This document shows, piece after piece, positions 3,411 through 63,150 of a stretch of 64,000 nucleotides of DNA (positions are counted from its first letter, which is position 1; each line of letters begins with the position of its first letter). The position numbers and the translations under genes are program-made. The DNA lies in NCBI GenBank assembly GCA_905178155.1, contig CAJINV010000011.1, forward strand, positions 767,982 through 831,981, written 5' to 3'. Below the pieces are notes generated by a model. That model made no database searches and had not been told where the DNA came from. It saw only the letters and a list, made by a program, of their open reading frames with translations. The DNA comes from Amoebophrya sp. A120 (lineage: Eukaryota > Protista > Dinoflagellata).

Positions 3411-6400
3411 ATGTCTTTTTCGAAAGCGATCCCGAAATTCGGGGCGATCCCGAAATCGGCCGGGATCAATGCGGCGGTAAAAACGAACGAGCTTTTGAAC
3501 GCCGCCCCCTCCCAACCCGACATCACGGGCGCCTGGGGCTACGACGAGAATGCGCCGATCAACACCGAGATAAAGATCGGGTACCGCGGCGTCGCCTACA
3601 CGTTACCGAAAAAGAAAAATTATCAAGACGGTACTAGTGCGAACGATAATACCAGTCCGAAGAAGGAGGATCATGATGCGCAAGAACCACCCCAGCCGGA
3701 ACAACCCGGTCCTTCGGGGGAGCAAGCTGGCGAACAGGGCGAGGGGCAGTCCCCGGTGGCAGTAGGCGCCGACGGGGGTGCGGACGCGGAATCTCCGAAT
3801 GGTGCGAATGCCGCCGTGGTTCCCCCGGCGCAACTATCAAATGCAAATGTGTCTGGGTCTGGGAGGATGCGAGGTTTGCCATGCTTGTCTGGCATGACTG
3901 AAGAGTTTGTGATGCGTGCCCCAGAAGAGACCCTTTTGCTTCTTACGCAAAAACGTTGTTTGTCATGCGGAAAGCGTAACACTAAGCAGCGCAGATATTT
4001 CTCATGCTTGGCTGTGCATTACAGAGCACTGACTATTCCCAACCCAGCATTACAAGTTTCCAGACCCAGACATATTTGCAGTTGATAGCAACCGGCGACC
4101 GACAACAGTTTCGCGGGGCGGTTCGGCGCCGCGCGCTTCCTGCAGCCGTTGCCCAGTGCGGGAAGCATTCCGCCACCGGGTGCGTCGTCGGGCACTGCTG
4201 CGATTCCCGGCTTGGGGATCAAGCCGGCGGGACAGGGGTTGGGACCCCCGGCGGTGGAAATGGACCACTGGAATCACCTGTACAACGACGATTTCCGGCC
4301 CGAGATGAAGGGAAAGAAGGGCAAGGGCAAGAAGGGGAAAAAGGACGGCGACAAGTCCTGGGTGCCCTTTCACGAACAGGATCATCAAGACGGGTCGTGG
4401 GTCTGGGTCGGCGGCCTCCCGCACGCGGTCACGGACGAGCAGCTGTGGACGTTGTTCAACACGGTTGGGGAAGTGACGGAAGTGGATGTGAAGCGCAACC
4501 GCGCCCCGCGGGACCCCACGTGGACCAACAACCCGCCCTACGCTTTCGTCAAGTTCGCCACGAAAGAGGAGGCGGAGTGTGCGATTACGGAGTTGAGCGG
4601 CGATACCTCCCTGGGAAACGAGATCAAAGTCAACCCCTCCGTAGCCTCGGCAAACATAGTATCGTATCCGTAGACCACTATTTGTACTAAAGCGAGGATC
4701 ATGATGCAGTAGTTTGTTGTGCTGTGCAACGTGTGAGTAAAAGTTCGTGTACGACACAAGTAGTGTGGTCGTTTCAAAGAAATCGGAAGATCAGCATCAT
4801 CCTCACAGCCCTGTCGTGAAGATGTGAAAATTCACACAAGAAAAACCACGTATACGATACCACCACCCAAATTTTCGCAATTCATAGGCCGCCCACGGAA
4901 AGCTGGAGACCAAGAACGATTTCTCCACTGTGAAGGGCGCAGGGAAAGAAGGAAAGGCGCACTTCCGGAAGGGCGCGGGGGCGCTGTTTGTCTGGAACAG
5001 CGGCCGGAGCGGGTACGACGAGCAGACTGCGACGGTGAATACGAACTCTCGGGACAAGGTGAGAAGCATCGCGGACCTCGGTCGGGACATCGGCACGCGG
5101 GACAAGGTATCCTGTGCAAAAGTATCGTACTCGTAGTAATTGCGTTTATGCATGATTAATATCTTTCTCAGGGTGAATCAGCATCACAAATTTAATTTGT
5201 AATGCTGGGCTAATTTGTAATGCAATTTATACTACTTTTGCAATGCATACAAGGATGGCGGAGGCAGGTTGGATAAAGACCGGAGCCGGGACCGGCGGGA
5301 CCGCGACCGTGACCGCGACCGTGACTACGGTCGGGACCGCGACCGCGATCGCCGCGGCGGCGGTGACCGAGACCGATACCGGGACGACAAATACGGCCGC
5401 GGCCGGGACCGGTCGCGCGATCGCGACCGGGGTGCAGCTGCTCGAAAGGCCGACTCGCGGGGGAGAAAGGACGACAAGAGGAAGCCGACTGTAGTATCCA
5501 AGGCCGCGGGGGGTGACGCCTCCGACAGCGGCTCCGAAGTGATCATTGCCCGCCCGGGGGCCGCCGCCGCGGCAGCCGCCGCTACGAAGTTCGAGAAAAA
5601 CGAGTGGGGCGGTGAGAAGGAGGATAATAAGATGGATGTGGAAGACGGAAACGAAGAAAATAAACCCGCTGCGGGTGGTGCTGGTGCTCCTACAACCGAA
5701 GCTGATGGTGATGCTGCGATGAAAGATGTTGGAGATGAAGATGGCGGCGCTGCGGGTCCTCCTGGTCCTCCTCCTCCTGCCGCCGGCGCATCCGGTCCGA
5801 AGGAACAAGAAGAAACCGATAGTAACGAGAAGCAGGAGAAAAATCTCGACGAGGCGGCGATGGCCGTTGCGGCTTTGATGGCAGCCCGCGATAACAAGAA
5901 GGATCAGTCGAAAGACTATAGCGAAGAACAGCAGGTAAAGGTATCGGATAAAAAACCAGCAGCTTCTTCCGCTGAAAAAGTTGTAGACAAATTTGATGAT
6001 AAGAAAGCTCCTCGTGATCGTTCGCGGTCCCGCGATCGGAAGCAAGACATGATGAAGAAGGACGATTCCCGCGGGCGCGATGCGGGTAAGATGAAACCAG
6101 CGGCTAAGAGGGACGATTCCCGCGGGCGTAATGCAGCGAAGAATAAACCAGCGGCCAAGAAAGGCGATTCGCGTGGGCGCGGCGGTGCAAAAGTACCCGC
6201 GAGGAAGGAAGACAAAGACTCCCGCGAGCGTCGCGGTGGACCGGCTTCTAAGCCTGCTCCAAAAAAGAACGATTCCCGTGGACGCACGACCGCCCCGAAA
6301 GAACCGGCTCCTACTTCCAAAAAGAACAATTCTCGCGCACGGTACACCGCGAAAATTCCCGTCAAGAAGGACGATTCTCGCGGACGCGCGCCTGCTGCGG

Positions 6401-7155
6401 CCAAAGCGAAGAAAGATTCCCGCGGACGCGGTGCTGCACTTCCTAGCAAATCCATGGCGAACGGAAATCGTGCCGACAGCTATCGTGCGGAAAGCTACAA
6501 CAAAACTAGCACGGTGAACAATAAACGCACGGACAGTAAAGCCCGCGCAGCTCCTGCTGCTTCTACCCGGAATGCGCTGGACGTTGATAGCAAGTACAAA
6601 AAACGAGACGACGACTACAAGAAGTCTTCCCGGCGCGGTGACTATGATTACAAAGACGACTACAGCAAAAAACCAACAACTCGGGGTTCGGATCGGGATA
6701 AAGATTTTTACGATGATTACAAGAAAGACGATTACAACAAAAAATCAGCTCGCGGCACAACTACCGGCAGGGGTGATTCCAAGCCGAAGCGTCTGGCGGA
6801 TGATGACTACGACAAACCGCGGGGGGGTGGACGTGGTGACCACTACGATGACTACAAGAAGTCGGATGATAAGTACACATCGACCAAGAACAAGCGCGAT
6901 GACGACTACAAGGGACGGGGAGGTGATTCGGGATACAACGATAAGTACAACGATTCTAAGTACGATTCCAAGTACGATTCGAAGTACAACGACTCCAAGT
7001 ACACCGGTTCCAAGTACAACGATTCGAAGCATGATTCGAAATACGACGACCGGGAACGGGCCCGGGACACGACCCGCACGCGGTATCGCGACAGCTACGA
7101 GGGAAATCACCGGGCCGAGGAAGCCGACCGTTATGATACCAGGAACTGCAGATAG
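3411..7155 (+). CDS. RRM-containing RNA-binding protein with long RD/RS- and DSRGR/YDDYKK-repeat low-complexity region; exons ~3411-3834, 4093-4640, 4888-5107, 5255-7155
   Basis: RNP2 VWVGGLP and RNP1 PYAFVKF are present. Frames join after removing elements 3835-4087 and 5108-5249 (each plus one TSD) and an intron ~4641-4887 (GT...AG; donor position not certain). Confidence 0.8.
3835..4087. mobile_element. Introner-like TIR element, family A
   Basis: TIR TATCAAATGCAAATGTGTCTGGGTCTGG / CCAGACCCAGACATATTTGCAGTTGATA; TSD GCAAC; removal of 258 nt keeps frame. Confidence 0.93.
5108..5249. mobile_element. Introner-like TIR element, family B
   Basis: TATCCTGTGCAAAAGTAT...TACTTTTGCAATGCATA; TSD CAAGG; the TSD allows a canonical GT-AG register (5107-5253). 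Confidence 0.92.
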
Positions 7156-7700: not shown

Positions 7701-8188
7701 CCATTCGCTCCGTGTTGGCACGACGGGAAAAGGCAAGAACACGACGGTCAAGGTCCAGGTCGACAACCTGCCGGCGGACATGAGTGACGGCGAGTTGCGC
7801 ATGCTGGGAGAGAAGGTGATGGTGAGTCCGGAAAAGCTATGCTCTGCAAAAGTATCGTACTCGTATAGTAGTACTACATTGCGGTGATGCATGACAAATG
7901 CCTTCTCCAATCTGAATCAGCATTACAAGTTTCTTGTTGCCGAAATTTGTGATGCTATCTATGCTACAACTACTACTACGATGCTACTTTTGCAATGCAT
8001 AAAAGCTGGTCTCCACGGAAATTTTCCCCGACGACGAAAACGACGACGTAACCTGCGGGTTGCTGATGATCGCGGACGAGGCCGCTGCGGCGGAGGTGGT
8101 GCGCCGCATGAACGGAAAACGATTCCCGAAGTCGACGGACTCCGGATCCGAGCAGAAGCGGTTGCGGGTGTATTTTCCGAAAGCGTGA
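7701..8188 (+). CDS. Divergent RRM-like coding segment (separate gene or terminal exons of the 3411 gene); start unresolved
   Basis: VQVDNLPADMSDGELRMLG...TCGLLMIADEAAAAEVVRRMNGKRF...LRVYFPKA* after removing element 7838-8001 plus TSD. Confidence 0.6.
7838..8001. mobile_element. Introner-like TIR element, family B
   Basis: TATGCTCTGCAAAAGTATCG...CTTTTGCAATGCATA; TSD AAAGC. Confidence 0.9.
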
Positions 8189-11783: not shown

Positions 11784-14700
11784 ATGAGAATCCTATTGAT
11801 CCCGCTGCTCCTGGCGGCGATTTTTTGCCACCTCGGCGCACAGGAACTCTTCGGAGTGCTGGGCTCCGCATCATTTTCCACCCCCTCGAGAAGTACAGAA
11901 GCCGCAGGTAGTGCCGAACAGCAAAGCACAGCACCAACGCCTGACCCCGCCGAGGACACGACGACCAAAAGCGTCTCTGCTCGTCAGCTCTACAGCATGG
12001 ACGCCCCAACTACACAGCAGGCCCACCTCTCCATGGCGACGGACATACCCAGTAGCTCGGGGGAGCTGACAGGGTTCAAGTGCGCTCCTTCGGCGTGTGA
12101 GGAGTTTGTTCCCGGGCAGCGGGACGACGACTGCTGCGCCTTTCCCTGGATGGCGGGGTGCGCGCCCGGACACCTGTACACGGAAGGCCGGCTTGGGTGC
12201 GGCCACGGCTACGATAATGGTGCGTACAGCACCTGCTGCATTCCGAAAGCGCACTACGACCAGAACCAGGGCATGTTTTGCAACAGATTGAAGGAGTGTG
12301 TGTTCAAGGAAAAAGCCGCGGCGGGCGGTGAAACTGTGGATCCGAGTCAGACGTGGAAAGAGGACGGGGATGGTGGGTCCGAGGAACCGGGAGATAATGA
12401 CGTGTCTGCTGAGGAAACTCCCTTCCGGTGGAACGAGAATGACGAGTACGAGCGACAGGGGTACAATCCGCCAGACGACATCGCGGCCAATACAGAGAAG
12501 TGCATCTTGGCTGCCTGCCAGGAGTACGAGCCGGGGCGTTTGGACACGGACTGCTGTGCGCACCCGGAAGTGGCGTTTTGTGGAAACGCACTGACGTACG
12601 CGCCCGGCGCGGAGGGGTGCGGGTGGGACCTGAGGCAGGGGCAGCGGAGCACGTGTTGCTACGACCCAAACATTTGGAGCGAGGGCGACATCACAGCGAC
12701 GCAAGAAGCCCCAGCCGCGAACAACGTGGGCGAAAGACTTCCTAACCACCATTCCCCGCCGGACGACATTACTGCGGACCCGAACTGCCACATCGAAGCG
12801 TGCCAAGAGTACGAAATTGGGACGCCGGATTCGGATTGTTGCGCCTTCGAGGGATTTTGTGCGTCAGGATTCCGGTACGAACCCCGGGCCGCCGGTTGTG
12901 GGTGGGGTCTGGAGGATATGAGAGTTGTGCACAACTTCTCCTCCCACGCATTTGCATGGCATGAGCAGCAATACACAAACACCAACACTACATCACTTGG
13001 AGCCTGTGCATGACAAGTTCACGGGCCGAGTGTAGTATTGTTTCGGGTTGTTCCGAAATTTGTCATGCAAACAGTGCCACAAGGCACCAAGTGATCAATT
13101 GTGGACTTTGCATCACAAATGAGGGGGAGGGGGGGTTGTGCACTCTCATCGTGGAGGGGGCGTTCTCGACGTGCTGCATCAGGGATGAACAAGGTACAGG
13201 CAGCGCTAATACCGGTGCTAGCACTTCTCAGCAGTCCTCTCGTGGCAGTTCTTCTTCCTCGATGACTGCGTCCGTGAGGAGTGGTGATTTCACCGCGAGC
13301 TCCGACAGCGCGGTGCCCATTGCGAGGACCGCTCCGATGCTTTCCAACGCCGAGCTCATGGCGCGGTACAATGCCTGGGCGGCGGCGAACGGTGGCAACA
13401 TCGCGGAGACCGAGACACAGCCGCCAGGCCCGGAGGATCACTTTTACAAAAGGTTATCCGCAGCACCCGGCTCCGCGACGTGGCTTATCAAGGCGGACCG
13501 GGAGGGAGAAAGAGCGGAGACCGAAGTGGTTTGTGAGTTACCAGCGTGCGAGGAATTCGTGAAGGGGAACAGTGATAGCGATTGTTGCGCGATCCCGCGC
13601 ATGGCAAGCTGCGCAATCGGGCATCGGTATTTACCATTGATCCGGAACTGCGGGGGAAAGAACGACATGGGCAGTCGGGTGACGTGTTGTGTGAAAGATG
13701 ATTCCGGCTCTTTCAACACGGAAAAAGACACGGGTAGAAAATGGTTTGATCGTGTGTTCGGGGCCGGAACTGCAGAGCCCGATTTCTGCATCCCGGGGTT
13801 CCCCAGGCCCGCGAATCCGTACACCTGTGCCGCGCAGCCGGCGAGCACAGGTGCTTCTAGTAACAGTGATAACAGCTACGCCTTCTTCGACGCGGAGATA
13901 ATTAAGGCGAATACGACTTCCGAGGAACGGCTGCCAAAAGACGTGACTGGCACTGCCTTGATGACCGACCAAGCGTACAAAAACGGAAAAGAAGCCGGTC
14001 TGCGCAACAGCGTCGCGCTCGCCGCGGATTTGGATGTTTCGATGGTGCAAGTGAAGGCGACAGGGTTTCACGTAGTTGAGAGGGAAATAACGGGAAGCAG
14101 AAGAAAGCTCAGCACTACGACGCCTGCATCTGCGGTGCAGACGGTGCAAACCTCTTTTATAGTGAAGTCCATGGACGCAACCAATGCCCGCGTCGCCGCT
14201 AGTCTGACGGACCGCGCGGCCACAGCGCGGATTCAGGCCATGACCGAGGAAGCCATGCGGACGAACCAGCGAAGCGCGGGATCGGATTCCGTGGTGCGTG
14301 GCGCTTGGCAGATGGAGAGTGTCCGTCCGGTGGATGTGCAGGGGAGCTGCGTTACCCGGGCAAACAAGGACTATTGCGAAGTCTACAGCCGGACCTCGTT
14401 TTCTGATGAACGCGGAAGCCGTTCGCAGGACGAGGACGGGAGTAGTGTGTTGCTGCTCGTTTGTCTGCTGGTCGCAGGTGGGTGCTTATTGGCTGGGTGC
14501 GTTTTTTGCTACGGTGGATATGGTAGTTGTACAAGAGCCTTCCCGTGGTCGCGTTTCGGTTTATTTGGAAACAAGAACCAGGCAAGTAAAGTTGTAAACC
14601 GTTACGCCACGACGATTTCGCCTGGCGATCTTCAGCATGCGGTGAGCAACATCAAGCCTGGAGTAAGCAGACAGCAACAGAAAGAAACCCATGAAAACTT

Positions 14701-15166: not shown

Positions 15167-16704
15167 AGAGCAATGCGGCGAGGCTACAATAGCAGAGACA
15201 CGTTGATTTATGAATCGGACAAAATTTTTGAAAATTAAGAAAAGCAAGATTGTGCATGGAATAGCACATTAAAACCTTTGACAGGGTACACATTTGGTGG
15301 ATTTCTTCATAGGCGGTGTAATCAAAAAATCTCGAAAACGAGAAAGGGAAGAGTCTATCGATTCGCCTAGAAGACATCAGCGGTCTTTCTTCAGTTCAAA
15401 AGAAATCTTGTAGTTACATCAAAAAAGGTGAAAGCATTTGTTTCAGACCTAGGTAGCGTTATTGCTATTCGTAATGCTAGTTTCGTTTCTATGTGTAACT
15501 CCGAAAAAGAGCTGTCGCTGTAAAACGACGCTATTTTTCCGACACGCACTTTGGAAAGTGTATCGGAATAAAGTCTACGTACTGGAGCACACAGACACAG
15601 ATTTCTATACCTGAGAGAAGATGAACCACGTTAAGTTTAATGTGGAAAAAGTTTGGAAATGTAAAAGTACTTAAATGGTGCGCGTGCGCGACCGTACAAT
15701 CGGAAAAGCCTCGACCACCACCTGACGTGAGGCGAAAAGGAATTCCCTGGACCCAATAGTGGTCGTGTTTCTCGTCTCTTGTGCAGGCACAGAAGATCAC
15801 GATGTCGATAATCGTCAAGAATCTCACCACTGCCAGATTTCAGGCAGTCAATCTTCGTACTTTTTTGTCTTTCGTCAGTAACCTTAACCAATAAATAAGT
15901 AAGTGAGTTTTTCGTGTGCTGAAGCTTTTTGTTTGTAATGCCGTAAAGTACGTCGAGTACGAGATCTAAGTACATCAGAACTGCCTCATTGATAGGTTCA
16001 ACAGATGAAACACTCACAAATTTTGCATCTCGTGCTCGTGGAACTTCGTGAAGAAAATTGGAGTGTGTCATTTGATGTTTCATTCGTTTGTTCCAGGTCC
16101 GGTCGTGTTTTCTTTTTGTGACGCAATTTTTTTTTCATCCTACGTTTTCCTTTCGGTTTTGTGACGAGGGCAATTACAAAGGTGTGGCTCCGATCGGACA
16201 CACAGGTGGGCCAAATTGCAGTGGTTTTGAGGCCTCATCTTGTACATGATCATTTTCATTATCACGCTAAATATCGTAGTGTGCTCCTTGTTTGAAGATT
16301 CGTGATGAGTTAGTAGACACTGCCACTCATCTACTTAAGTGGCAAACAACAATACCGCATCCGCAGCATAGAAAAATAGAACGCAAATTGTTTTTTTTGC
16401 TGCCATGGCTCCTCTGCTCTCTCGTCGTCGCAACGTGAAGACCTGTTGTCTTGTTTCGCGTCTGGCAATTTCGCAAGCGGAACGCGAAAGGGCCCGCTGT
16501 TCCAGCGTGCTGCGAGCGGAGCCAAACGGCGTGCAGCGTAGTGCGGAGCGCTCGACGCACGACGGCGCGACGCATGGACAAGGAATCAGGAGGAGCTACA
16601 ACGGGCCCTTCCTGAGCAGGAATGCGACTACGCATTTCGAACCCTGACTCGGACTTGTACGAGTGCAGCCACGAGCCCGCACTAACAGGACCAACTTGGT
16701 CAAC

Positions 16705-19700
16705 ATGTCGTCGCGAAAACGTAGGAAGAAGCTCCTGGCGCACTGGGCCAGCGTCGCGGCGAGACTGACAAGTTCTTTGTTTTTCCTTCACATCAGTAGG
16801 CCGTTACTGCACATCATGATGATGCTCTACTTTTTTCTGCATGTCCTTCTGAGTAGTCTGTATGACCACCTCCCGCCAGCACCAGCACTCGGAGTTGTAC
16901 ACGCCCTCACCACCGCGGTGGCCGAGGAGACCATGACCTTGGAAACCTACATCCGGAGGAAGGTGGAGTGCGAGTCTTGCCATTTAAGGCACTACGCCCC
17001 CCGGATTTTCAAGTGGAACTTCAAGTACAACAAGTTTTTCGGGCACCACGGCCAGTACAACTACGAGCTGCAGTCCTTGAGTGACACGCTGCAAAAAAAG
17101 CCCTTCGAGTTACCGTTTTCCGAAGTGGCGTTCGAGAAGCTGGTGAAAATTATCGACGACCCGGGATGGTGGGAGTGGGAGCGGATTAAAAACGTGAAAA
17201 AGTCCGTCGCCGACTGGCACCTGTTATCCTGATTAAAAACGTCCCCACACAACCAGAATCTTCAAGATGGGAAATCTGCTAGACAAATCACACAGCAGCT
17301 TTGGTTGTTTGGCACGACAAGTTTCTTGTCCTCGTAGTGTAATCCTGTTTAGCTAGCTCAGAAGCGTCACAGATCTAGCATTTCATGCTGATTTTAGCAT
17401 CACAAATCCCAAAACACGAATAGAGAAGGCTTCTCATAGGGCTCCGCATGAGAAACTTTTTTGGCATGCAATTGCATGACAACTCTGGGGAAGTAGTGGG
17501 GACGTTTTTACTCAGAATACCTGTTCCGAGACACCTACGACGGCATTCACTGGAGCAGGATCGCGTACGAGCTGGAGGTGGACAAAAACTGCGTGCGCGT
17601 GTGGCAGCCCTGGAGCGAGTGCTCGGTGACCTGCGGGCCCGGGGGCCGGGTGCACCGGTGGTGGCGGTACGCCGACCGGGAAGACCAGCCACCGACCGCG
17701 AGAAACTGCGGCCCCGAGCGGGACGCGGACACCCTACGCGGGGAACAGGAGGTGCATTTTGACGAGATCGCGCCGTGCACGAACTTCATGCGGCCGATGC
17801 CCCGGTGCCCGCCAAGGCCGGAGATGCCGGACGAGGGGCCCGACGACCTGGTGCATCCGCACTACAACGCGTTGAACCCCTACTGCGACGGCCAGCAGTT
17901 TGCCTGGCTGCGCTACAACTTCGTGAGCTCTACTGAAAACCCCGGCGCACTGGTCCTCGCGGCGGAGAGGGGTCAGCACAGGCAAAACCAAGACGGACAT
18001 CACGCAGCGCCGTACTTCACGTTCCCCCGGGGGGACTTGTGCGCGATCGACTTGTGGCAAAACGAGGTGTACTTTTACAATAACGTTGACATTCCCTCCT
18101 TGAATCGGAAGGCGTTTACGGACGCGCGCAACTTCAACCCCTCGGAGTATCAATTCTCGGTAAACCAAATTGTCGACCAGGCGGGACAGACGATCCGGGA
18201 GGACGGTTGGCCGATCCACTACCGGGAGACGCAGTACTCCTACTTTCGGTGCAAGCGGGCCCTAGAGTACGTGAACAAATTGGAACAGTACCTTTTCAAA
18301 GACACCGACCACAAAGACGAGGTGAAGCTGGTGCCCGCGCTGCGCCACAAGGCCCCGGTCACCGCCGCGGAGATGCAAACGGCGCTGACAAAAAAGGTCC
18401 AACAAGGCGAAATCGGGGACGGCGACGGGTCCGGCGTGGAGAGCCTGCCGCTGTTCCGGAACTTCCAGGTGCACGGTTATCTCAAGGGGAGGGAGATGAT
18501 GCAGTGGAAGTGCGAGAAGATCTGCGACTACTTACCGGAGTGTGTGTTGTACAGCTACCTGGGTCATCGGCCGGACGATGATCCAGAGCAGAATGATGAT
18601 ACAGGGGCCGACGAGAGGACGACCTCTCCGGACGACACCTCTGGCGAGGCCGGGGCGGCGTCGGAAGTCGAGAGCCAGGACCACTGGTGCTTCCCGAAAT
18701 CGAAGCGCAACGGCGGGAAGCAGGTGGGGCACAAGGAGGTGCGGAACTACCCGACCGGGCGGGGCGGGGAGGTGACAACCGACGTGCCGGTGGACAGTTT
18801 CGGGTCCCTGGGGTTCGGGGTCTGCATGCGCCGCGTGTGCGAGGATGAGCAGGAGCACGACATTGCCGTGGACAAGTACGGGCTGGGCTCTGAGGTCGTT
18901 TTGCGGTCCAAGTGCCAGAAGCCGATCCACTGCGAGCTGACCGAGTGGTACTACCCGAAAACCTGCACGAAAGAGAAGAACGTGGACTACTCGAAGCACT
19001 GGAAACTGAAGCGGCTGAAAAACGACGAGGTGCTGGAGCACAGCCGGGGGCAGGCCACGACGTCGCGGGGCCACCGGCGCAAAGTGCAGCGGTTGGAGGA
19101 GTGTCGCGAGATCTGCCGCCGTTCGGAACTGTGCGATGCGTACGCGTGGTGGAGGTTGGAGGCCGCGGCCGAGGAAGACCAGGGAAGGTGCAAGTTGCTG
19201 GAGCGCCGGGACGCGGACTCGCCGGGCGACTTTTTGGAAATGTGGAATGCGGACGTGATCAGCGGGGTGTGCAGTCAGCCGACCTGCTCGGCCGCTTGCC
19301 GCCGCGACAAGGACACCGCGCACGGCTTCAAGTACCAGGTCCGCGACATTTTGGTGCACCCGCAGTTTGGCGGCACGGAGTGCAGTGAGACGCTGCTGCA
19401 CCGGGACCGGTGCGAGGCCGACCCGGAGAACGACATCTGCCCGCCGCGGGCGCCCCAGGACGGCTGGGGGCTGCCCTGGGACCCGGACGGCACGGAGCCC
19501 TACGACAAGGCGTACTGCCAGGTGGACAGCGAAGTGACCATTCAGGGGAGAAAAAACCGGGACCTGTGCCTGCACGAGTCGCTCGACCGGACCGACGGCG
19601 AACTGGACTGCTGCGTCGACATGTACAAAATTGCGACGATGGGCTACCACCAGCCGGAACAGTGGTGGAAGGGGAAGGAGCAGCTGCCCTACAAGGAGCA

Positions 19701-49789: not shown

Positions 49790-52700
49790 CTACTGCACTG
49801 GCATACTGGATATCGGTATGACTTCATTATCTAAAAACCATTTCCGGTAGCGGACTTCCATCGGAGCCGCCTCCGCTAGCGTGACAGTAGCGGAATCCTT
49901 CCAAACGCAAATATTCCGAACCCAGCCGCATCCGTTCCGAGCTTTGAAAGCGTAGTCGTCCCTTCGGTATTCGGCGATATTTCCAATCACGGTTACTCTG
50001 TCCAAGCTGACTGGATTCTTCATCGGGATATCGGCCGAGCCATTGCGGTCAGCCAGGTATACTGCACGGTCTAAAACTCCAGTCACCTCGTAGATCGGCT
50101 TTCCGTAAACCCCAGCGAGCTCTTGCTTCCCACGAACCTGAGCCGGTGGCAACTCCACCTGAACTAGATCCCCCACAATGACATCAGGAAACCGGCTACC
50201 CCTCTTTGCGATCAGTTTCTTTCGAGTACGTTCCGCCGCCAAAGCCTTATCCTCGAGGCAGTCGACCGCCAGTTCCCGTCGTTTCCGTTCGACCTGGTCC
50301 AACGCGTCACCGACCGATAGCTCAACAGCCCTACTGGGTTCTGGCACGGCAGCCCGTAATTGTGGAAACAACTGCCCCCGAACCTCAAACCCCAAAACGT
50401 CTAATGCGGATCGACCATTCCTGCCTTCGAGCGGCATTCGGTTCAGCGCCAGCTCAAGATCTTCAACCCTGTCAGACCACTCCAAATGCGTGCCCGGGCC
50501 TGGGGACGTTCTGAAGAAGTGGGTGCAGAATTTGTGAACATACTCCGCCGCATGTTGGCCCGCCGGGTGGTAGCTGGTCCCTGGCACAAACTTCACGGCC
50601 GGGTAGTTGCGACGCATCCAAGCCCGAAGCTTGCCATAGCCCTTGTTTTTGAAATGTTCGAAGCCATTGTCTGCCCGCAATTTCCTCGGCGCCCCGAAGC
50701 GCTTAAAAATTTTCTCCAGGCACTCGGCCGCTTTCTCGACGGTTTTGCTTCCTGTGCTGAATATCCAATTGTAGCCACTGAACACATCGCAGGCCGTAAA
50801 GATGTATTTTTGTTCAGTGCCAGTAGTGGTCTTGTAAGGTCCGGCATAATCGAACGCGATGCAATCCAAGAGCTGTCCATATTCCAGCACCTCCGCCCGC
50901 GATGAGATCAACTGCTGTTCCCGCACGTTGGTGTTGCACGCCGGGCATCTTGCGATGAAGGCTGCAACATCTTTCCGCATGTTGTTCCACAAGAATCCGC
51001 ACCGCAAAATCTCAACAAAAGTTGCATACTCACCCGCGTGAGCAGCCCCCACGGCCGAACGGTGGATGGCCCAGATCAAGTATTCGCGAAGCGAAATCGA
51101 ACCCGAGGGAAACAGGTGCGTAAGCTCTTCTTCTTCGAACCCAGGAACCCCATCCACAAATTCCCCCGGTGGAACCACCACCCTGAAAACGTGGTCGCGA
51201 TCTAACCGGATCAGAACATCGTCTGCATCTCGACAAAACTGCATCTCTTCACATCGTCGATAGCAGTCTTTGCCCGTTTCACACCCCAACGACGCGCCGC
51301 GCGTTGAAGTAGTTCTTCCAACGAAAACCGGCCTACATTGTCCAGGACCCAAAAATGTTCTGGCCAGGCCTTTTGCTGCATTTGCGCAATTCTTTCTTTG
51401 GTAACGTCCACCGGGACTGCTGTTTCTTCTTCCACTCCAGGAGGCGGAGCTTGTGCGCCAAAAGCCAGCATTCCCTTGTATCCGCTTTTCCAAAATCGTC
51501 GCAGCGGCAACTGCGACCCTACTGCCCCCAACCCTGCTCCTGTTCCTGCCGAAACCTTCGACGGAGCAGAGAAAATGAATTTCTTGTAGTTCCACTGCTC
51601 CTGGATCTTGTAGTACGCTTGAGGAGGTCGCACTACTTCCACAAATTCCGGAACGAACCGTTTCGCCGTAGCAGTGCTGGTAGAGAAGTAAAACACCATC
51701 TAACGGCTCCAAATCCGCAATCGGAGTCGCTTTTGTCGGAACCGCCCCCGGCCGGTACAGGCTTTGCAGTCGAAAAACAGTAGGTCCATCGTGAAGAAAA
51801 ATTCCCTGGGCCTTCTTAAAGATAGCATTTACCCAAATAGCTTCTGGATCGGCTTCTTCCGGTGCTGGATCCAAGTCTTCGTCTTCGTCTGCCAGCTGGT
51901 CCGGAGGTGGGTTTGCAGGAAAATTTGCAATCGCCAGCAACGGCTCTGCGTTTTCATCTCTGTTGCCCCCCTGCAAATTCTTCTCATCCTCCTCTTCGAC
52001 GTCCGAATTACTGAAATTAACACTATTCCCTTCATCAACACCCGCATGAGCATCCTGTTTGTCATGCGACGACGACGAATTGTTATGCGGAATTCCCAAA
52101 GGGGGAGCGGCCTGATGCTCCGCTTGTTCGTCTAAAATCGGTAGAAGGCCAGCCTGATTCCGCTGTTCCTGAAGCGCGTCAAACTGCTCTACTAATTCGG
52201 CCAGGCGAGTACTCCGCTGCCTGGTGTTCCGTTTCTTCAAAAGTTCTTCCGTTTCCGCAACTATTAAATCCTCTTGATCTTCGATGGGGAGGCAAAACCG
52301 CAAACCATCACCCGGATCCTGGATAATCCGCTGTCGCACCGGGGCCACGCCACAATTGCACTTGCACCGCCTACCGGGCGCCCGTAGAAGTGCTTCCCCG
52401 GTGTGTTTCGGACAAATTAGTAGTGGCGACTCAACTGTTTCTCGACCGGGATTCCACTGCGCTTTGAATAGCTTAACCTCCTGCACCCCATCAGTGCATT
52501 GCAAATCCCGCAGTGGCTTCGCTATTGCTTCCAAATCGTGAGCGACAAATTCCTTCGGATGGTTGGAATGGGACAAATCGGAGCGGAACCGGTCTGGCAG
52601 CCCCTTGGCCGCAGCTTCTTTTGCCTCGGCGAAGTTGCGATATAACTTCCTCGGCCCCCAAGAGTACTCCACTTTATTCCCATTTTGCACCACTACGACT

Positions 52701-53692
52701 TTCTTCTTTTTCCCATCGGCAGTCGCAGAAACGTGAAGCGCTTGATTTTGTTCTGCCACCCCGAGAGGCTGCGTTTCTCCTTGACCCACGTTCGGGTCTT
52801 CGTCCTTCTTCGATCCAAATAGCCACTTGATACAATCCCGAACTCCATTCGGCATTTGACCTAGTACCCGCTGTAGGTCGGCCCGTACTCCTTCGCGGTC
52901 TTTGCCTTCTGCTGGGAATCTGGAAACGATGTCCGCCAAAATATTGCATTCGCCACTAATGTGCACCCGGTGAATCAGTGGAGATCGTAACTTCGGAAGC
53001 CTACCTTCGACCCAACGCTGAGCCTTGGCTGACTTCACCTGTGACCTTGCAATCTCTTCCAGCTCCGACTCCCCCAAGTTCTTGTGATCGAAAAGTAGGA
53101 AAATTTCGCTGCCCTCCACAAGGTTCAACCCAAAATCGCAGAACATCTTGACCCCCGCCAACTCGCGTTCAAAAGTTCCCAGGTTTGCATCGCCAGCTGC
53201 AAAACTCCTTGACTTCGCCATAATCGGACGCAGGGGCCCGAACTTCTTCGCTGGCTGAGCAATGGCAAAACCCCTTCCGTAAATGCTTGCGTCGAGCAAA
53301 ACACAAATTGGCCGCCCGGTAGTGCGCCAATTCTGTCCCGCTGCAAGGTCTAGAGCCTTCAATGGAACATCCGAGCGGAGAGAGGTGCGCAACCGTTTAA
53401 ACGCATCCATTGCTGCTGGGTCGCCTTGAAATTTCTTGAAATCCGATTTCTGACGGAGGTAGGGGCGGAGCGGATGACAAATCTCCGTGAAATCCGGGAT
53501 GTATTCACGACTGAAATTTGCAAAAGCAACCGCCGACAACAGCTCCGCGCGCGATTTCGGTGTTGGCCAGTTCCGTAACTGGTCGCAGCGTTTCCTCGTT
53601 GGTTTCCGTCCTTCTTCCGAAAATTCGTAGCCTAGAATCTCCAGAGACTTGCACCCGAAACAACTCTTCCGCAGGCTCAACGCAAAACCAAT
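49790..53692 (-). mobile_element. Ty3/Gypsy-type LTR retrotransposon pol, 5'-truncated inside RT (RT C-term, RNase H, long insert, H2C2 + DDE integrase)
   Basis: LSLRKSCFG..LEILGY; LLDAS...ERELAG...FDHKNL...HISGECNILADIVSR; H...AHAG...LWNNMRKDVAAFIARCPAC; AFDYAGP, CDVFSGY, RADNG, HPAGQHAAE. Order RT-RH-IN. Candidate PPT on - strand at ~49176-49192. Confidence 0.9.
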
Positions 53693-54276
53693 TTACCGTA
53701 AAGTATGACTCCTACACGAGTTTTGAGGTGTAGACATCTCACCGGCTGCGCCATCATTAGCGTCTTACTGTGTGAGTATGTAGTCTCCACCATCCCGTAG
53801 CCATCGTGGATTTCATCCGCCGGGCACCTAAAGGTGCCACGCGCGTCACCTGGTCTAAGTGGTACGCTTTACGGTCGACCAGGCTGTATTACACTGTCCC
53901 CAACTCCGATAGACGCTCTGTCTACCGCCACCGACCCACGCCGGGACATGCCTTATCCTTGGACCACAATTGTGGTTCGTGTCACCAAGGAGTTTGCACT
54001 GCTGGTTCTTGTTTTTTACGGAAGGCGGACGCCTCAGAAGGCCCTTCCAACATGACGAGTCAGACAGCGCGTAAAAATACAGCCACGATTAGATGTAAGA
54101 TGCTTCCCATGCTACTAGGACGGCAGTCGCGCACTGCTCGGTCTATATATCCTAGTTCACCATCAGGTTTGGTAAACCCTCAGCGGGAAGATTTCCTTGA
54201 GCAAGTCGTGATACTTGGGAGGTCGTTTGAATAGCCGCACCTGATTTTGACGCAAGCTTTTTATCTCTCTGATCTT

Positions 54277-56638
54277 TGAAAATCTCCGCTTTTGCCACGT
54301 ACAGCTACCTTTTTCACGTAAATTCAACAAAGTAGGCTCTATTTTAGCTCAAATTCAGGTCAAAAATGGCATATTTTAGGTCCAGAACGCATGGAAAATG
54401 GATCAAAAGGCGCAAAATGGCGCCCCAGTTTCCACTGGTAGGGTCGGAACTCCGATGTAAGGTTCAGAAAATGAAGCGCAGACGAAGCTGCTGCATGATC
54501 TAGGTTCTTGCACTGACTAAATGCGCGCCGCTTTTGTCTTTACCACATCAGGAACGTCCACACCACGGGAAACATTAGGAGCTTATGTGATGCTTTAGTA
54601 TGAAGCACAAAGAGCCTTTAGCTTTACTACGCTTGGGCTGGACTAGGTCCAGCCAGAACACATTGATGGATATTGTGCCTATTTTGGACTACATTTCCCC
54701 TAGAATTACTTCTGTTTGCGCCTAAAGAGCACTATTGGCTTGTGGGTAGTGTTCGAGCCCTCGGTTGACTTGGTTGTAGATTCTTATTCGTTTGCTCGGT
54801 GCGCGTTTCGGAAGTCTGCTCGTGAAAGCCAAGACAACCTGGAAAATACAGGCGATTTCACAAGTGGTGGACCCGAGCGGCAACGAAGCCGGAGCTTTTT
54901 CTGGGAAAATGTATAGCGTGGGCATTAGCTCGGGGCACATTTACGCTTCTCTCATTTTGGACGTATAGGACAGTCTATATCTATTTCCCGTGGTGGTGGT
55001 GTAGCGCTAGGTCTGTTTTCCTTAGGATGCTAGTAGCGGATACAGCGCATCGCTAAGCGCAATAGATAGACAAAAGCCATGTTCCTTGGGCGGCGGGCTA
55101 CGTACACGAAAATCGGCGCACAGACTAGCTTCGATTGCGGAGGGCTGGGGGCAGTAAGTAGTAGCAGCGTTTGCAAGGTACGCACGGAGCGACCTTGTCC
55201 AGAAATTCCGAGACGGCGTAATAGCTAGCCGGCCGGAGCCGGAGTAGTAGCAGGCGGAACGTTTTGGGCTGCAGATTCCTCATGGGAGGTAGCTGCGTTG
55301 ATAGCAGCGACGGGCCCCAGCCACGGATCGGGCAAAAAAGTTGTCTGTCGCGGGATGTAGAATTGCAGCTGTGGATTTGGGGGCAGCAGGAGTCTCCTAG
55401 ACAAAAGTAATAGTCTTTGAGGCAGTTCGCAGTTTTTTGGGGGAGATCATTTTTTTTTCGGGGTCCGATATTGGAAGCGCGCATTAGCAGTTGTCGGGAT
55501 TGCCGCAATAGCTTTGATGCCGGAGCAGCAAAGCTTGCGCTCGACTTTCGATTTTCAGTAGCACAGCGATCCGCTGAAGCATGGGGGCAGTTGTTTAGGC
55601 CGGAGCCGTCAACAGGCCTCGAGTGCTTTATCGGGAAAAAGGCACTGATGGTAGATTGCAGCAGATTGGCGAGTGTTCGCGTAAAGTAATCAGGGGGCTT
55701 CTGGGAAAATTGCCTGGCTGTGATTACTTGACGCGAAGTGAAGAACGAGGTCTGCTTATTTGTTCTATTGAGGTAGTTAGACGCATCCAGCCGCACAGCG
55801 CGACTAGGGTCGTCGTTTCTTTATTTTAGGACTTTTTTTTATTTGAAACGAACCGCGGCTGCGTCTGGAGTCGATGCGCGGTTTCGCATCACTTCACGCA
55901 GGAGCTGGGTTCGGGGCTATATTTATTTGCTTTTCGCATTACAGATTTACATTGGGGTAGCCTTGCTGGTATGGTTTGGCTTTACAGTTTTCACGTTACT
56001 ATATTGGCTACAAAGCTCGTCGTCTTCGACTTCGACCTTTGCAGCTCTTCTGGGAAAATCTCCGCTTTTGCCACGTACAGCTACCTTTTTCACGTAAATT
56101 CAACAAAGTAGGCTCTATTTTAGCTCAAATTCAGGTCAAAAATGGCATATTTTAGGTCCAGAACGCATGGAAAATGGATCAAAAGGCGCAAAATGGCGCC
56201 CCAGTTTCCACTGGTAGGGTCGGAACTCCGATGTAAGGTTCAGAAAATGAAGCGCAGACGAAGCTGCTGCATGATCTAGGTTCTTGCACTGACTAAATGC
56301 GCGCCGCTTTTGTCTTTACCACATCAGGAACGTCCACACCACGGGAAACATTAGGAGCTTATGTGATGCTTTAGTATGAAGCACAAAGAGCCTTTAGCTT
56401 TACTACGCTTGGGCTGGACTAGGTCCAGCCAGAACACATTGATGGATATTGTGCCTATTTTGGACTACATTTCCCCTAGAATTACTTCTGTTTGCGCCTA
56501 AAGAGCACTATTGGCTTGTGGGTAGTGTTCGAGCCCTCGGTTGACTTGGTTGTAGATTCTTATTCGTTTGCTCGGTGCGCGTTTCGGAAGTCTGCTCGTG
56601 AAAGCCAAGACAACCTGGAAAATACAGGCGATTTCACA
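54277..56638 (+). mobile_element. Non-coding LTR element: twin 585-bp direct repeats (54278-54862, 56054-56638) with PBS-like site
   Basis: Repeats look identical by eye and end in ...TTTCACA. The first copy is followed by AG-TGGTGGACCC (tRNA-3'-end-like PBS). No ORF, clear PPT or TSD seen. Confidence 0.7.
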
Positions 56639-56783: not shown

Positions 56784-58521
56784 ATGTCTTCGGCTTCGAG
56801 CAAGAATTTCTTACCAATCGCGCCTACCGGCGCTCCGCCTCGAAAAGATGCTCCACCACCGCATAGTACTAGCGCCCTACGCGGGCGCGGAGGACCAACA
56901 CCCTCGAACAATGAAAGGCCGCACAAGATGAATCCGAGGAAAAAAAACTTCGTGCCCTTAGTTTCACCTCCGGCACGTCCTCCGGAAAGCGCACCGTTGC
57001 TGCTGCACGATGAGGACGGGAGAAGAGGAGACGAAAAACAAGTGACAGGGAACAAAGGGCATTATGATCCGAAGCAAGAACTGAGGGCCGCTACTCCCTG
57101 CTCCGGTGGAGGTAGTAGATCTGATCTCTTACATCAAGCTGAGAAGCCCCTGCCCTCCGAGTCAACGCTTGTGCCTGAAAACTTCGAGTGGGGCAGTTGT
57201 GGTAGTTCTGCTGGTGGTGCTGGTGGTGGTGGTTCGGAAACCTTTTCGCAGCAAAATTCTCCTACGTCGCAGCTTTCATCCCCAAGAGGCACTGCTGCAC
57301 AAGCTGCGAATTCTAATTCATCTTCCGACGTGACCACCCTGCACGTCGGAAAGAACCGCCGGGACCACGATCGCGCCCCGCGGCTTTCTTTCCTGTTCCC
57401 CAAATCCCCGGGTACTTACCAGCTGCAGGACCTGAATTTGCACGCCCTGGGGCTGCGGGTGAAACCGCTGGCGGAAGTGAAGCTGCTACAGTCGGTCGTG
57501 TTGGAGATGGTGCTGCCCGGGGACTTCGCGCAACCGGTTCTCCTGGCGCAGCAACAACAGTTTGGATTTGGAAATTATAGCAGCGCCGTCGGAGCTGGTG
57601 CTGGCGGTGGATCCAGCGCGACGAGCATGGGCGCTGCAGCTGCGGGGGGAACGAGTACAGCTTCCGCACAAGGAGGTACCACCGCAGTCATGTTGCCGCA
57701 GTCGCTGCAAAAATTGGCATCACAGGGTACTGCCACAACACAGCATTCGTCTTTACTACCGGCTGCCTCTTCTACCGCAAAAACCTTCTGGTCCAGCAGC
57801 TCGAATTATCAGAAAAAATACCGCACGGTCGACGTTCACTACATTGGCTGGTACGTGTCATCTATGTATTGCAAAAGTATCTTCGTATTTCTAGTGGTCA
57901 TTGCATTACAAACTTGCTCAGCATGACGATCGGAATTTCTCATGCTGTTTTACCTTAAGAGGATGATTTCGATTTGTCATACACAATTGCAACTAGTACG
58001 ACCACACGAGTGCGATACTTTTGCAATGCATATCATCTGGAACGACGACGACAACCACAGGAGCTGGAAGTACCTTTACAAATCCGACGTTGATCTACAA
58101 GGCGTTCCAATTCGATACCACGTACAACCGCCACAAACCGCTCCGGATGGACAAGTTGGGAAAAAACGCGTATTTTCCCGGCTTGGAGGAAGCCGTAGTG
58201 CAGTTGTGCGTCGGCTCCAAAGCACTCGCGTACATCCCCCCGGGCAAGGCGTTCGGCAGTCGCGGCTTCAAGGCTCTCATCCCGCCGAGTGCGCACCTGA
58301 TCCTGTGGTTGTGCGTCGAGAAACCCGGAGGAGCGACGGGGAGTTTGTCGAGCGGTGGGGGAGGGGGGGGAGGAGGAACGGGAAGCCGTGGAGGTCCTGC
58401 TCCGGGCAATAGTTTTGCGGGCAAAAACAAAGCTGCTGGGACAACAGGTCGAGGAGCGAAAAACAAAAATCAAGATGGTTTGCCACCGCCGCGGATGATG
58501 AAAAATCATTCGCCTGTATGA
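56784..58521 (+). CDS. FKBP-type peptidyl-prolyl isomerase domain protein with low-complexity insertions; exons 56784-57862, 58038-58521
   Basis: VLEMVLPGD...TVDVHYIGW...FDTTYNRHKPL..LGKNAYFPGLEEAVVQLCVGSKALAYIPPGKAFGSRG..LIPPSAHL matches the FKBP fold consensus. Confidence 0.82.
57863..58032. mobile_element. Introner-like TIR element, family B
   Basis: TATGTATTGCAAAAGTATC...GATACTTTTGCAATGCATA; TSD TCATC. Confidence 0.92.
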
Positions 58522-58729
58522 ATTCGATTTCGCAAAAAAAAAAAAAGTAAGATGCAACGCTTGGAAAAAGTAAGATACAACTCCAACTCATGCAGCTGTG
58601 GAAAGAGTGAGCAAGAGATTGTTGTGCAAGTGATCATGAACAAAAGAAAAAATTTCGTTCTGTCTTTGTCGTCCGTGAGTGTCCTTTGTATTCATCACTT
58701 CTTTGCAGGGCTGTTGCATCACCACGAGC

Positions 58730-60083: not shown

Positions 60084-60557
60084 CTTCACCGGAACCCTTT
60101 CTTCGACGATATTGAAGACCGAGTTTCAAATATCAAAAGAGTAAGAGAATGAATGCACTTCTACATATACACATAGCTGCATTAGAACTTGAGCTGCTGT
60201 TTTTTCCCATCCAATCCTCTGTGATGGTTACTCGAGATTGTTGTCGTGCGCGGCTTCGAAGAAGGAAGGTTGTCATAAATTTTTTCGTGCGCTGAATAAA
60301 TCCTCTTACTTTGTCATTGTCCCCCAATCACTTAAGTACAAGACCCCTTCTCGTCTTCCGCTCTTTCTTCATTCACCGATATCGTACTCCCTGAAAAAGA
60401 AAATAAATGCCCACGTTTGACTACAAAAAGGCACAACTTTCAACAATTAATAGCACGACAAGTAGAGCGCAGAAGTAAGCTGTAGGTATTAATCTTCTGC
60501 TTGTCACTCGGAAAAGGTATAGTCTATTTTCGCGAGTAGTACCTACACTACTAGAAA

Positions 60558-60944
60558 ATGGCGTCCCTCGAGCAGACCATTGACGAGCAGCACCAGGATC
60601 TGACCCTGTTTGTGCAGAACCTGCTGAAAGAGATGCAGAGCAGGTTCCAGACCATGTCTGACGGCATTGTCAACCGTATTGACGACATGGGAGGGCGGAT
60701 CGACGATTTGGAAAAGTATATTCGTTTACACACTCCAGTTCCTCTTGATCTCTCATCGAGCAGGAGGATAGAAGTGCCTGTTGGTGTCTTTGAAATGCAC
60801 GAAGGTAGATCCGTATCTAGAAATTGTGATGCATGACGCTACTGAACTACAACAAACGAAACTAACAGGTCTATCGGCGAGCTTATGACGGAGGCCGGCG
60901 TAAGCGAGGATGTCGCCGCCGCACCTGCTAGTGGAGAAAAATGA
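60558..60944 (+). CDS. HSBP1: Heat shock factor-binding protein 1; exons 60558-60715, 60869-60944
   Basis: [40 protein letters not shown]|SIGELM; canonical intron 60716-60868 ending ACTAACAG. Confidence 0.93.
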
Positions 60945-61929: not shown

Positions 61930-63150
61930 ATGGCTATGGTAAACAACCTTCCTACTTTCCACAGTGGTGGGTCGATGCCGTCCTCCACCCGGCGCGGGCC
62001 CGCGGGCGTGAAGCGGGGTCTGCAGACTGTCGAGGAATTTCAGCCTACCTCAGACCCAAACCTGCTAAAGGATGAGTACGGAAACACGCACGAACGCGAA
62101 GATGTCCCCGTGTCGCCCACGGAGAGTGAGGCCGTGCAGTCGGAGCACAGCAGCGACAGTCCGAGTGAGGACAAATCTGGCAGCACCTCCGGGGAGGGCG
62201 AGGGCGCGAACTATCAAAGTGAAAAAAGCCCCCACCCCATATCGGAAACGGAAGATGCGCGAATTTGTGATGCTGCATTTGAGTACACAAATCGACTTGT
62301 ATTGCTAGAAGGCCAAGAGACGAAGCTGCGGCCTAAATTGCGGGCAGTCTGTCATGCTGTTTCCCACTTCCAGTTGCCTCCTGTCATCCTGGAGCTGCAA
62401 GGCTTGCCCACGCTAGGCAGCATTACAGTCCGCATCTTTTGCCTTCTAGCATCACAAAGCTGATTTGTGGCCACAAATCTGCATCGCAGATTTCCGCTTT
62501 GATATGGGGAGGGGGCATTTTCATTGTAATACGAACTTTGCGAAAAAAGTCTACACCGCGATCCCCATCCCCTTTGACTTCTTCGGCTATCCACAGGAAA
62601 TTTCCCGTACACGTCCAAATGTGGCTTCCGCATTACAAACTTTTCCTTCGAACCTCTTCAGCATGACAAGTTGCTTCTTCTAAGTTGGTGAAATTTGTGA
62701 TGCATTTTGTACGCGTGCGGGAATTATTTGTATTGCATATCAGCATCGGAAAAAGGACGGCCAGCGCGGCGGACACGTATCTCCTTAATCCCATCGTCGG
62801 GGCCGCGGTAACGGGGGCGAGGCAAACGCTGTATCAGAGTCAGTTTCTTTTTGTCGTTACGTTTTGATTTATTTTCACACAGTCAGATCCAGACGTGATG
62901 TCAAAAGATGTTTTCTGGTACGAAGTACAACGGAATTATTCGCATTGGAATGCAAAAGTAGAAGAAAAAAAACGCAGGATAGATGATGATGATGATGATG
63001 ATGAAACCAGGTTGCCGCAGCTGGAAAAGTGGGCTGGTGTCGACACGGAGAAGGCACAAGCGAAGGAAGCCAGAAACCGGAAGCGCATGCGTGCCAAGGG
63101 CGGAAACAGCAAAAAGCGCACCAAATCGGCCGAGAGACAGATGAACGAGA
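61930..63150 (+). CDS. Hypothetical protein, multi-exon, probably continuing downstream (3' structure unresolved)
   Basis: Frames join across elements 62212 and 62588 (GAN|FAKKVY...FFG|IGKR), then probable conventional introns at ~62839-62886 and from ~63151. Confidence 0.55.
62212..62531. mobile_element. Introner-like TIR element, singleton family G
   Basis: TATCAAAGTGAAAAAAGCCCCCACCCCATATC...GATATGGGGAGGGGGCATTTTCATTGTAATA; TSD CGAAC. Confidence 0.85.
62588..62739. mobile_element. Introner-like TIR element, singleton family H
   Basis: TATCCACAGGAAATTTCCCGTACACGT...ACGCGTGCGGGAATTATTTGTATTGCATA; TSD TCGGC/TCAGC. Confidence 0.8.

Follow-up and report, generated by a model that had tools for sequence, protein, structure and literature searches.

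Amoebophrya sp. A120 is described in the text of PMC7789003 (Farhat et al. 2021) as having tens of thousands of introns without GT-AG ends and ∼1,950 families of introners, for which no transposase was found. According to that text, these introners have noncanonical ends, fall into many families, lack an internal transposase, and carry inverted repeats that start with TAT, followed by a less strict stretch of about seven bases and then by at least three A, with direct repeats of 3 to 5 nucleotides (nt). Passages of PMC12130899 report integrase-like frames flanked by inverted repeats among A120 introners. We focused on a window of 64,000 nt of this genome (contig CAJINV010000011.1, positions 767,982 to 831,981 of the forward strand; positions below without a locus name are counted within this window), whose elements resemble the described introners in their TAT/A-tract inverted repeat, the direct repeat at their boundaries, their removal without GT-AG ends, and their repeated families devoid of a transposase. 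They differ in that only terminal motifs are presented in the text of PMC7789003, where a shared interior motif, its spacing, and its occurrence in GT-AG introns are unreported. This interior motif is real and conserved, and we consider it fairly likely that a host DNA-binding protein reads it, taking together a role in DNA shape and a role as a mark of introns.

Three further systems come close. In CACTA/En-Spm elements, as described in passages of PMC2613891, a short motif is reiterated in direct and inverted orientation inside the ends and is proposed to be a DNA-bound cis-determinant (bound by TnpA), and binding can affect host gene transcripts. That system has CACTA ends and a 3-bp duplication, as opposed to TAT..ATA and 5 bp here, and its motifs diverge between subfamilies and have element-encoded readers, whereas the A120 motif is common to all families, fills the whole element, and also occurs in predicted immobile introns and in a retroelement. 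Emigrant is a miniature inverted-repeat transposable element with internal repeated motifs that Lemi1 binds cooperatively beyond the terminal repeats; the passages of PMC1636448 that describe it concern one family and a related transposase, and they mention neither an intron function nor sharing across families. Finally, IS3EU/GingerRoot elements have TA..TA termini (TAY in fungal IS3EU), but their duplication is given in parts of PMC10045372 and PMC12730594 as usually 6 bp, while it is 5 bp here by both sequence and the length skipped at joints. No IS3-like DDE transposase or autonomous partner was found in the window or in 0.56 Mb of related loci (see below), and this kinship is put forward as a lead only.

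On both strands of the whole window, the word TGTVATGC (V being A, C, or G) occurs 130 times, compared with 6.42 ± 2.68 times in 100 dinucleotide shuffles (largest count, 18), an enrichment of ∼20-fold. Its three forms, TGTCATGC (59 copies), TGTGATGC (41), and TGTAATGC (30), are all among the seven most frequent 8-mers of the window, TGTCATGC being the most frequent one, while TGTTATGC occurs only 3 times. The exact copies fall mostly into TAT…ATA elements (112, or 8.8 per kb), followed by the region of a retroelement (10), intergenic DNA (4), GT-AG introns (3), and 27.9 kb of coding sequence (CDS), with a single copy. Expectation maximization on the element interiors, seeded with the reported word, yielded a full motif of 13 letters and 12.4 bits, RRYYTGTVATGC(W), which was located by matrix and exact counts on both strands between positions 3835 and 62739, with ∼5 copies per element. 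Among its tolerated variants are TCTCATGC and TGTNTTGC. With a weak S-C-A at +15 to +17 included, the footprint would be ∼24 bp.

The 49 elements of the window were delimited by hand from an inverted-repeat scan. With the exception of one decayed end, they begin with TAT or TAC and finish with ATA or GTA, and the 5-bp target duplication that flanks them is perfect in 32 and has one mismatch in 10. The end logo of window and locus elements reads T, A, T (0.99), S, with an A-tract at positions 11 to 15 (A at 0.85 to 0.93 in positions 11 to 13); the TAY start was imposed by our element finder, the A-tract was not. An exact copy of the word is found in 44 of the 49 elements, and all six named families (A to F) are represented; two unassigned elements, at 45011 to 45223 and 63485 to 63725, contain no site, either exact or by weight matrix. 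By matrix, sites of the window elements are balanced between the strands (115 plus, 113 minus). The first-pass annotation of the window had described the word as recurring, in mixed orientation and scarcely in exons, in all of a set of otherwise unrelated families. Its enrichment over background and its scarcity in exons stand; its presence in all families holds for A to F and not for the two unassigned elements; the mixed orientation is right overall and wrong for family D, which is polar (131 sites on one strand, 4 on the other); and the families are not unrelated, given that they have in common a TA start (TAT in 99%), the A-tract, and the 5-bp duplication.

To extend the data set, we scanned with the end of family A, which gave 166 loci of one assembly in a metagenome collection (0.56 Mb after merging) and no match in viral contigs; all counts below rest on the window plus these nonredundant loci, which are enriched for family A because of the way they were found. 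A strict finder, which recovers 30 of the 49 window elements and none in 3 shuffles, yielded 365 further elements, and a looser one yielded 440 (0 and 1 in two shuffles). With a matrix trained on the window, 363 of the 365 carry at least one site (mean, 5.3). Among 413 elements, there are 13 clusters of at least 3 members with median lengths of 109 to 322 nt, which is too short to encode a transposase, and seven longer elements contain frames of chance size only. The locus families are those of the window, suggesting the same or a very close organism. A further family of ∼305 to 315 nt (ends TATGGAAGCGTCAG...), absent from the window, has the same motif and the 32-bp pair described below; it occurs at L018 (13126 to 13433), L024, L026, L027, L061, L062, and L086. 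In the window and loci L001 to L066, element flanks are coding in 272 cases, intergenic in 11, intronic in 10, and mixed in 42, so that coding DNA appears strongly favored for insertion even though intergenic DNA has about half the coding length in the segmented set, a comparison biased by loci having been found via family A.

We measured mismatch to the consensus in 14 subfamily alignments. The motif core mismatches at 5.3% (566/10,721) compared with 15.0% elsewhere (4,306/28,663), with intermediate values for RRYY (10.9%) and the terminal repeats (8.7%), while the degenerate position of the motif reaches 15.3%. The core lies below background in all 14 subfamilies, for AT and GC bases alike. 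Across 505 copies, its divergence climbs at 0.24 of the background rate and is 10% where the background is 36%. Far from diverging as fast as its neighbors, the motif thus changes at about a third of their rate. The interior core is under constraint, which may have acted in jumping lineages alone.

The arrangement of the sites follows rules as well. Same-strand pairs peak sharply at 31 to 33 bp (37 of 224 window pairs), as they do in 10 clusters of the loci. Taking loose sequence groups as units and moving sites by shared offsets as the null, we found that 15 of 27 groups have such a pair in at least half of their members, compared with 4.8 expected (maximum, 10). The smallest elements (109 to 119 nt) consist of the two ends plus one same-strand pair, mostly 32 bp apart. 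Head-to-head pairs prefer distances of 13, 22 to 23, 44, 54 to 55, 65, and 75 bp, with a coherent phase of 10.5 bp (R = 0.40; 0 of 300 nulls). Three helical turns between sites would suit a protein on one face of B-DNA.

An alternative is that the motif works at the RNA level: it could be a branch site or a splicing enhancer bound by a protein, or its inverted copies could pair into stems that fold the intron. In its favor, GCATNACA is a loose match to a branch consensus, the folds of element interiors are more stable than those of shuffled sequences (mean z of −1.3 to −5.5 in 8 clusters), and, among the 279 elements whose gene strand was called from the coding model, a sense copy lies 30 to 50 nt from the 3′ splice site in 168. 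In 93 others the nearest one is more than 50 nt away and 18 have no sense GCAUNACA-type site at all, and no fixed distance to the 3′ splice site is seen in the 279; the branch-site model was rejected on these grounds. Nor does the transcribed strand matter: sense and antisense sites number 837 and 796 (P = 0.32; 413 elements, set in the sense direction where called), or 291 and 298 in the first 108 strand-called elements, and core mismatch does not differ significantly between sites that read one way or the other in the RNA (4.9% versus 5.4%; P = 0.37). Insertion orientation is unbiased for family A (66 versus 79; P = 0.32) and for the polar family D (11 versus 5; P = 0.21), which occurs in both orientations within one gene of 3,882 codons. 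The stem model was likewise rejected, given that inverted copies show no covariation: the variable base matches in 579 of 1,732 inverted pairs (33%) and in 854 of 2,066 direct pairs (41%), and in family D the pairing of core with core amounts to 0.07. Without strand bias or covariation, and with elements that lack a sense site, an RNA code is very improbable in our estimate; we regard this alternative as largely refuted, and the earlier proposal of a cis-code for noncanonical splicing finds no support at the RNA level. The strand blindness, the lack of covariation, and the spacing preference point instead to a protein site on double-stranded DNA. The constraint, the degenerate fourth position, the single logo in all families, and the spacing rules support the predicted binding site for one protein; of the two readers offered for it in the first pass, a transposase or a host factor, the evidence favors the host factor, with the motif in predicted immobile introns and a retroelement speaking against a purely element-encoded one.

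The gene mentioned above, on the plus strand at 16648 to 35371, contains 25 introners of six families in both orientations, and deleting each element plus 5 bases produces a single open frame of 3,882 codons with 25 junctions. Of the 15 joints listed for the X1 contigs, whose nature as RNA is a guess, 12 skip element plus 5 bases, and the remaining 3 connect paralogous copies. The long X1 pieces listed are identical to the window exons yet without the old, diverged inserts, and for this reason they likely represent spliced transcript. Raw-read runs X7 to X9 gave 3, 4, and 368 reads, all partial, and were left out of the junction evidence. The frame needs removal of the family D copy at 21686 to 21971, which has all six sites as TGTNATGC on the transcribed strand, and the copy at 30958 to 31244, whose six sites are all oriented the other way, is skipped in the X1 contigs; between 19.6 and 26.5 kb, which includes the oppositely oriented copy at 21686 to 21971, removal is read from the open frame alone. 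In run X9, >300 RNA reads match only the family D end (17496 to 17519, 34982 to 35002) and then continue into other sequence, and they would come from a related element in a transcript encoded outside the window.

Where the two copies of the duplication are unequal (26087 to 26354, 33067 to 33342, and 33707 to 33932), the cut lies between duplication positions 4 and 5. From these three joints, and assuming one rule, the introner intron is likely N-TAT...ATA-NNNN, that is, from the last base of the left duplication through the first four of the right one. This agrees with the inverted repeats of A120 introners lying 1 to 5 nt from splice sites, as stated in PMC7789003. Since the removed piece is always element plus 5 bases, the element ends appear to set the cut, and the splice points are likely defined by them and not by the motif. 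Among the predicted GT-AG introns introduced next, 39 of 83 start with GTAT, which is the N-TAT register of introners with G at +1.

To follow the motif outside introners, we applied a gene model to the window and to 42 long loci and divided them into segments; the noncoding part of this model is second order and blind to the motif. We kept 83 GTA...YAG introns of 60 to 350 nt that have exons of at least 60 nt on both sides and no BLAST match to the elements, setting 213 other predicted introns apart. At a threshold of 12 bits, site density per kb (shuffled value in parentheses) is 20.3 (0.24) in introners, 2.14 (0.17) in the 83 predicted introns, 0.34 (0.13) in intergenic DNA, and 0.08 (0.08) in CDS. 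In counts, this corresponds to 31 sites in 14.5 kb of predicted introns compared with 2.4 in shuffles (∼13-fold), 36 compared with 13.7 in intergenic DNA, and 17 compared with 18 in CDS. The signal is strongest in predicted introns of 100 to 140 nt (21 sites, 0.74 expected; 18 and 3.1 for longer ones). The logo is the same as in all introner families, both orientations occur (14 versus 17), and 8 of 18 direct pairs are 31 to 35 bp apart. Traces of introner ancestry are near background: the residual terminal repeat scores 7.1 compared with 7.0 of 25 (20.3 in introners), flank identity to any element is 0.489 compared with 0.471 in shuffles (0.73 in introners), and, as to terminal repeats or duplications, the signal in the 30 motif-bearing introns is no stronger than in the 53 that lack the motif. 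We also considered short GT-AG introns as a repeat family of their own and rejected this, the motif-bearing ones having no mutual similarity beyond the motif. Examples on the plus strand are a predicted 106-nt intron at 1737 to 1842, with two same-strand sites 31 bp apart (1771 and 1802), and one at 60716 to 60868, within an HSBP1 gene, that has no terminal repeat and contains a weak site at 60791 and a strong one at 60825, separated by 34 bp. In locus L020 (2635 to 6090), a C5 cytosine DNA methylase gene is split by a predicted GT-AG intron with one site.

The motif also clusters in a Ty3/Gypsy-type retroelement, whose noncoding 3′ region (47961 to 49790) contains 9 strong sites (7 plus, 2 minus) where 0.2 are expected, although the 31- to 33-bp spacing is not seen in that region. 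Its pol frame of 1,300 codons, on the minus strand at 49790 to 53692, encodes RNase H, an integrase zinc finger, and rve. The motif cluster is kept in a related copy in L030, where positions 2710 to 3745 hold a deleted retroelement piece, the 3′ noncoding part joined to the integrase end, with a flanking direct repeat of ∼35 nt. Beside the pol frame lie near-identical direct repeats of ∼590 nt at 54273 to 54869 and 56049 to 56637, 1,776 nt apart, the first of them followed by a TGG that resembles a primer site; 54273 to 56637 is probably a small nonautonomous long terminal repeat element next to this opposite-strand frame. At 35955 to 37079, an intergenic stretch with a flanking direct repeat of ∼57 nt and 4 strong sites (0.07 expected) is possibly another mobile element. 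Of 91 intergenic regions, 23 contain sites, and since these keep no set distance to a start codon, we rejected a promoter role.

These occurrences bear on the idea that the motif is read by an element-encoded protein only, a transposase or TnpA-like helper that forms one machinery for all families, and that the sites in ordinary introns are old introner relics. The common terminus and 5-bp duplication of all families fit this idea, as does the build of the smallest elements, mostly two ends and a 32-bp pair; TnpA on the subterminal repeats of Spm (PMC2613891) and Lemi1 on Emigrant (PMC1636448) are precedents in the passages describing them. There is also a weak alignment between the interior of intron 1737 to 1842 and family A (71% over 56 nt, in part owing to the motif itself), and the ends of this intron keep a shifted inverted match. 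Set against this are the 25 exact copies in the 83 predicted introns, whose ends and flanks show no such ancestry and of which neutral divergence of ∼50% would by our estimate leave few; the cluster in a retroelement that uses other enzymes; and the divergence of CACTA motifs between subfamilies, which the A120 motif does not show. An immobile intron cannot be selected for transposition, so that the sites of the predicted introns, provided that these are real, must have a function for the host. We hold an element-encoded protein alone to be unlikely. Owing to its presence in predicted immobile GT-AG introns and in the 3′ region of the retroelement, the motif more likely has a host-encoded reader.

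The explanation that we favor, giving it about an even chance, is that a single host-encoded protein, with an action on chromatin or DNA shape, binds the motif in double-stranded DNA and has been co-opted by introners. The protein would bind phased arrays, with about one site per 50 bp and the first site 30 to 60 bp inside each end, and once bound it would keep short stretches open or bent. Bent or open DNA could help a transposase to join the ends of an element of 110 to 330 bp, and this aid would select for arrays in jumping lineages. The same binding may serve the host in short introns, keeping sites where the terminal repeat is gone. In bacterial transposition, integration host factor is a comparable case, a chromosomal host protein that binds inside element ends and helps to assemble the transposition complex; we know of no case of host-factor sites that concentrate in introns and fill noncanonical introners.

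Several observations weigh against this explanation. Post-insertion selection in introners was examined by singletons, target-duplication age, and divergence bins; the copies of the target duplications diverge by 4.4%, close to the core divergence of 5.4%, as would suit neutral decay once an element has inserted. Selection in jumping lineages alone, followed by neutral decay, fits the introner data, a fit that also counts in favor of an element-encoded protein. The GT-AG introns are model predictions made without RNA, Pfam domains continue on both sides for one of them (the DNA methylase of L020) and on one side for three more, 53 of the 83, including most of the longer ones, have no site, and intron 1737 to 1842 may be a converted introner remnant. 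At least two sites are found in 9 of 16 short predicted introns compared with 3 of 57 (P = 2e−5), a difference noticed post hoc. Direct pairs keep the phase less well (10 of 300 nulls; best period, 15.5), tail-to-tail pairs show no significant phase (45 of 300 nulls), and a helical periodicity of element length was rejected at the family level (202 and 411 of 500 nulls). The terminus type and 5-bp duplication shared by all families mean that these are not wholly unrelated, and the window and loci are independent loci, not independent lineages. The loci, which sample a small part of the genome, contain 99 long frames, and among these we found no candidate binding protein and no transposase, the latter result also speaking against an element-encoded reader.

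A related possibility, which we think doubtful, is that the motif marks introns at the DNA level, with the bound protein slowing the polymerase or recruiting the spliceosome in place of U1, so that elements in either orientation are removed. Intron DNA in A120 might then, with the same modest plausibility, be coated by one sequence-specific protein on phased arrays that directs cotranscriptional splicing instead of U1, and, no less tentatively, any array-bearing transposon, DNA element or retroelement, could become a tolerated intron either way round. This possibility gains from the restriction of the motif to introns and mobile DNA, with background level in exons, and from the introns with the least usual ends having the most sites (20 compared with 2.1 per kb). 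One site or none is found in 7 of 272 elements in coding context compared with 3 of 11 intergenic ones (P = 0.005), although intergenic elements are few and, of the three with so low a site number, one may not be a true element. An old intergenic TAT..ATA copy (45011 to 45223) has lost all sites and kept its ends (19 of 24 terminal matches), while its closest relatives have 3 to 6 sites. U1 small nuclear RNA, moreover, went undetected in A25 and A120 according to the text of PMC7789003. On the other side stand the predicted GT-AG introns without a site, the seven elements in coding context with one site or none, the decay of the core in older copies, which is compatible with neutrality after insertion, and the lack of depletion in exons, which a mark that triggers removal might show.

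Within the window, family A (ends TATCAAATGCAAA..TGTCTGGGTCTGG; inverted-repeat scan) has 16 copies between 3835 and 46809: 3835 to 4087, 22036 to 23208 (with an insertion), 23800 to 23976, 26416 to 26677, 27082 to 27336, 30324 to 30613, 31565 to 31818, 33072 to 33337, 38287 to 38539, 38585 to 38878, 38896 to 39150, 40730 to 41005, 41930 to 42197, 42708 to 42976, 43237 to 43453, and 46541 to 46809. The 10 copies of family B (122 to 183 nt; span, 5108 to 62739) lie at 5108 to 5249, 7838 to 8001, 20401 to 20553, 20697 to 20854, 32884 to 33005, 38098 to 38280, 41059 to 41188, 43048 to 43191, 57863 to 58032, and 62588 to 62739. Family C has 4 copies (12917 to 13150, 24036 to 24272, 24802 to 25036, and 34077 to 34307). 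Family D, with its polar arrays, is found at 17225 to 17519, 30958 to 31244, 34575 to 34865, 34951 to 35249, and 42336 to 42634 and, oppositely oriented, at 21686 to 21971; an element with family D-related ends that clusters apart lies at 62212 to 62531. Family E comprises 7 copies (20923 to 21148, 24513 to 24720, 26092 to 26349, 29103 to 29344, 33712 to 33927, 40389 to 40626, and 41623 to 41876) and family F 3 (27380 to 27652, 29813 to 30071, and 39198 to 39459). The family A element at 22036 to 23208 (1,173 nt) contains a GC-rich insert of ∼850 nt with short tandem repeats, has no site between its positions 42 and 979, and is yet removed in the open-frame test; a stretch related to the insert occurs in locus L023 (90% over 568 nt). 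The end variant TATGCATTGCAAA (22036 to 22050 and other family A and B ends) includes, in its positions 4 to 11, a sequence close to the motif (GCATTGCA), and terminal repeats of this kind may derive from the interior site or be bound like it. The inverted-repeat element without a site at 63485 to 63725 lies in a predicted gene, has no matching duplication, and is a putative intron.

The elements themselves are known A120 introners, and the interior motif is probably unreported, as judged from text searches, aside from figures, the journal version of Roy et al. 2023, and the data sets of PMC12130899. TGTCATGC and CATGC are absent from the main text of PMC7789003, and CATGC and GCATGA from the text of its supplement, figures aside. 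The motif is unmentioned in the text portions of 10.1101/2020.10.14.339549 (Roy et al. preprint), PMC9860276, PMC11282704, PMC11453091, and PMC13326754 that were covered, and no paper in the literature searched contains two of six exact motif words.

One 13-bp word with a spacing rule offers a well-defined target, both as bait in the search for the protein and for mutation in reporter assays, and the motif provides a family-independent marker for annotating introners. It bears on two open questions in A120, namely, how non-GT-AG introns are handled without a detected U1 and how introner families are mobilized, and it offers a handle on the spread and tolerance of unusual introns. If a host factor does read it, such a defined sequence-specific DNA site would be a rarity in a genome of the dinoflagellate lineage, and if binding of the factor promotes splicing, introns would be defined here in a new way.

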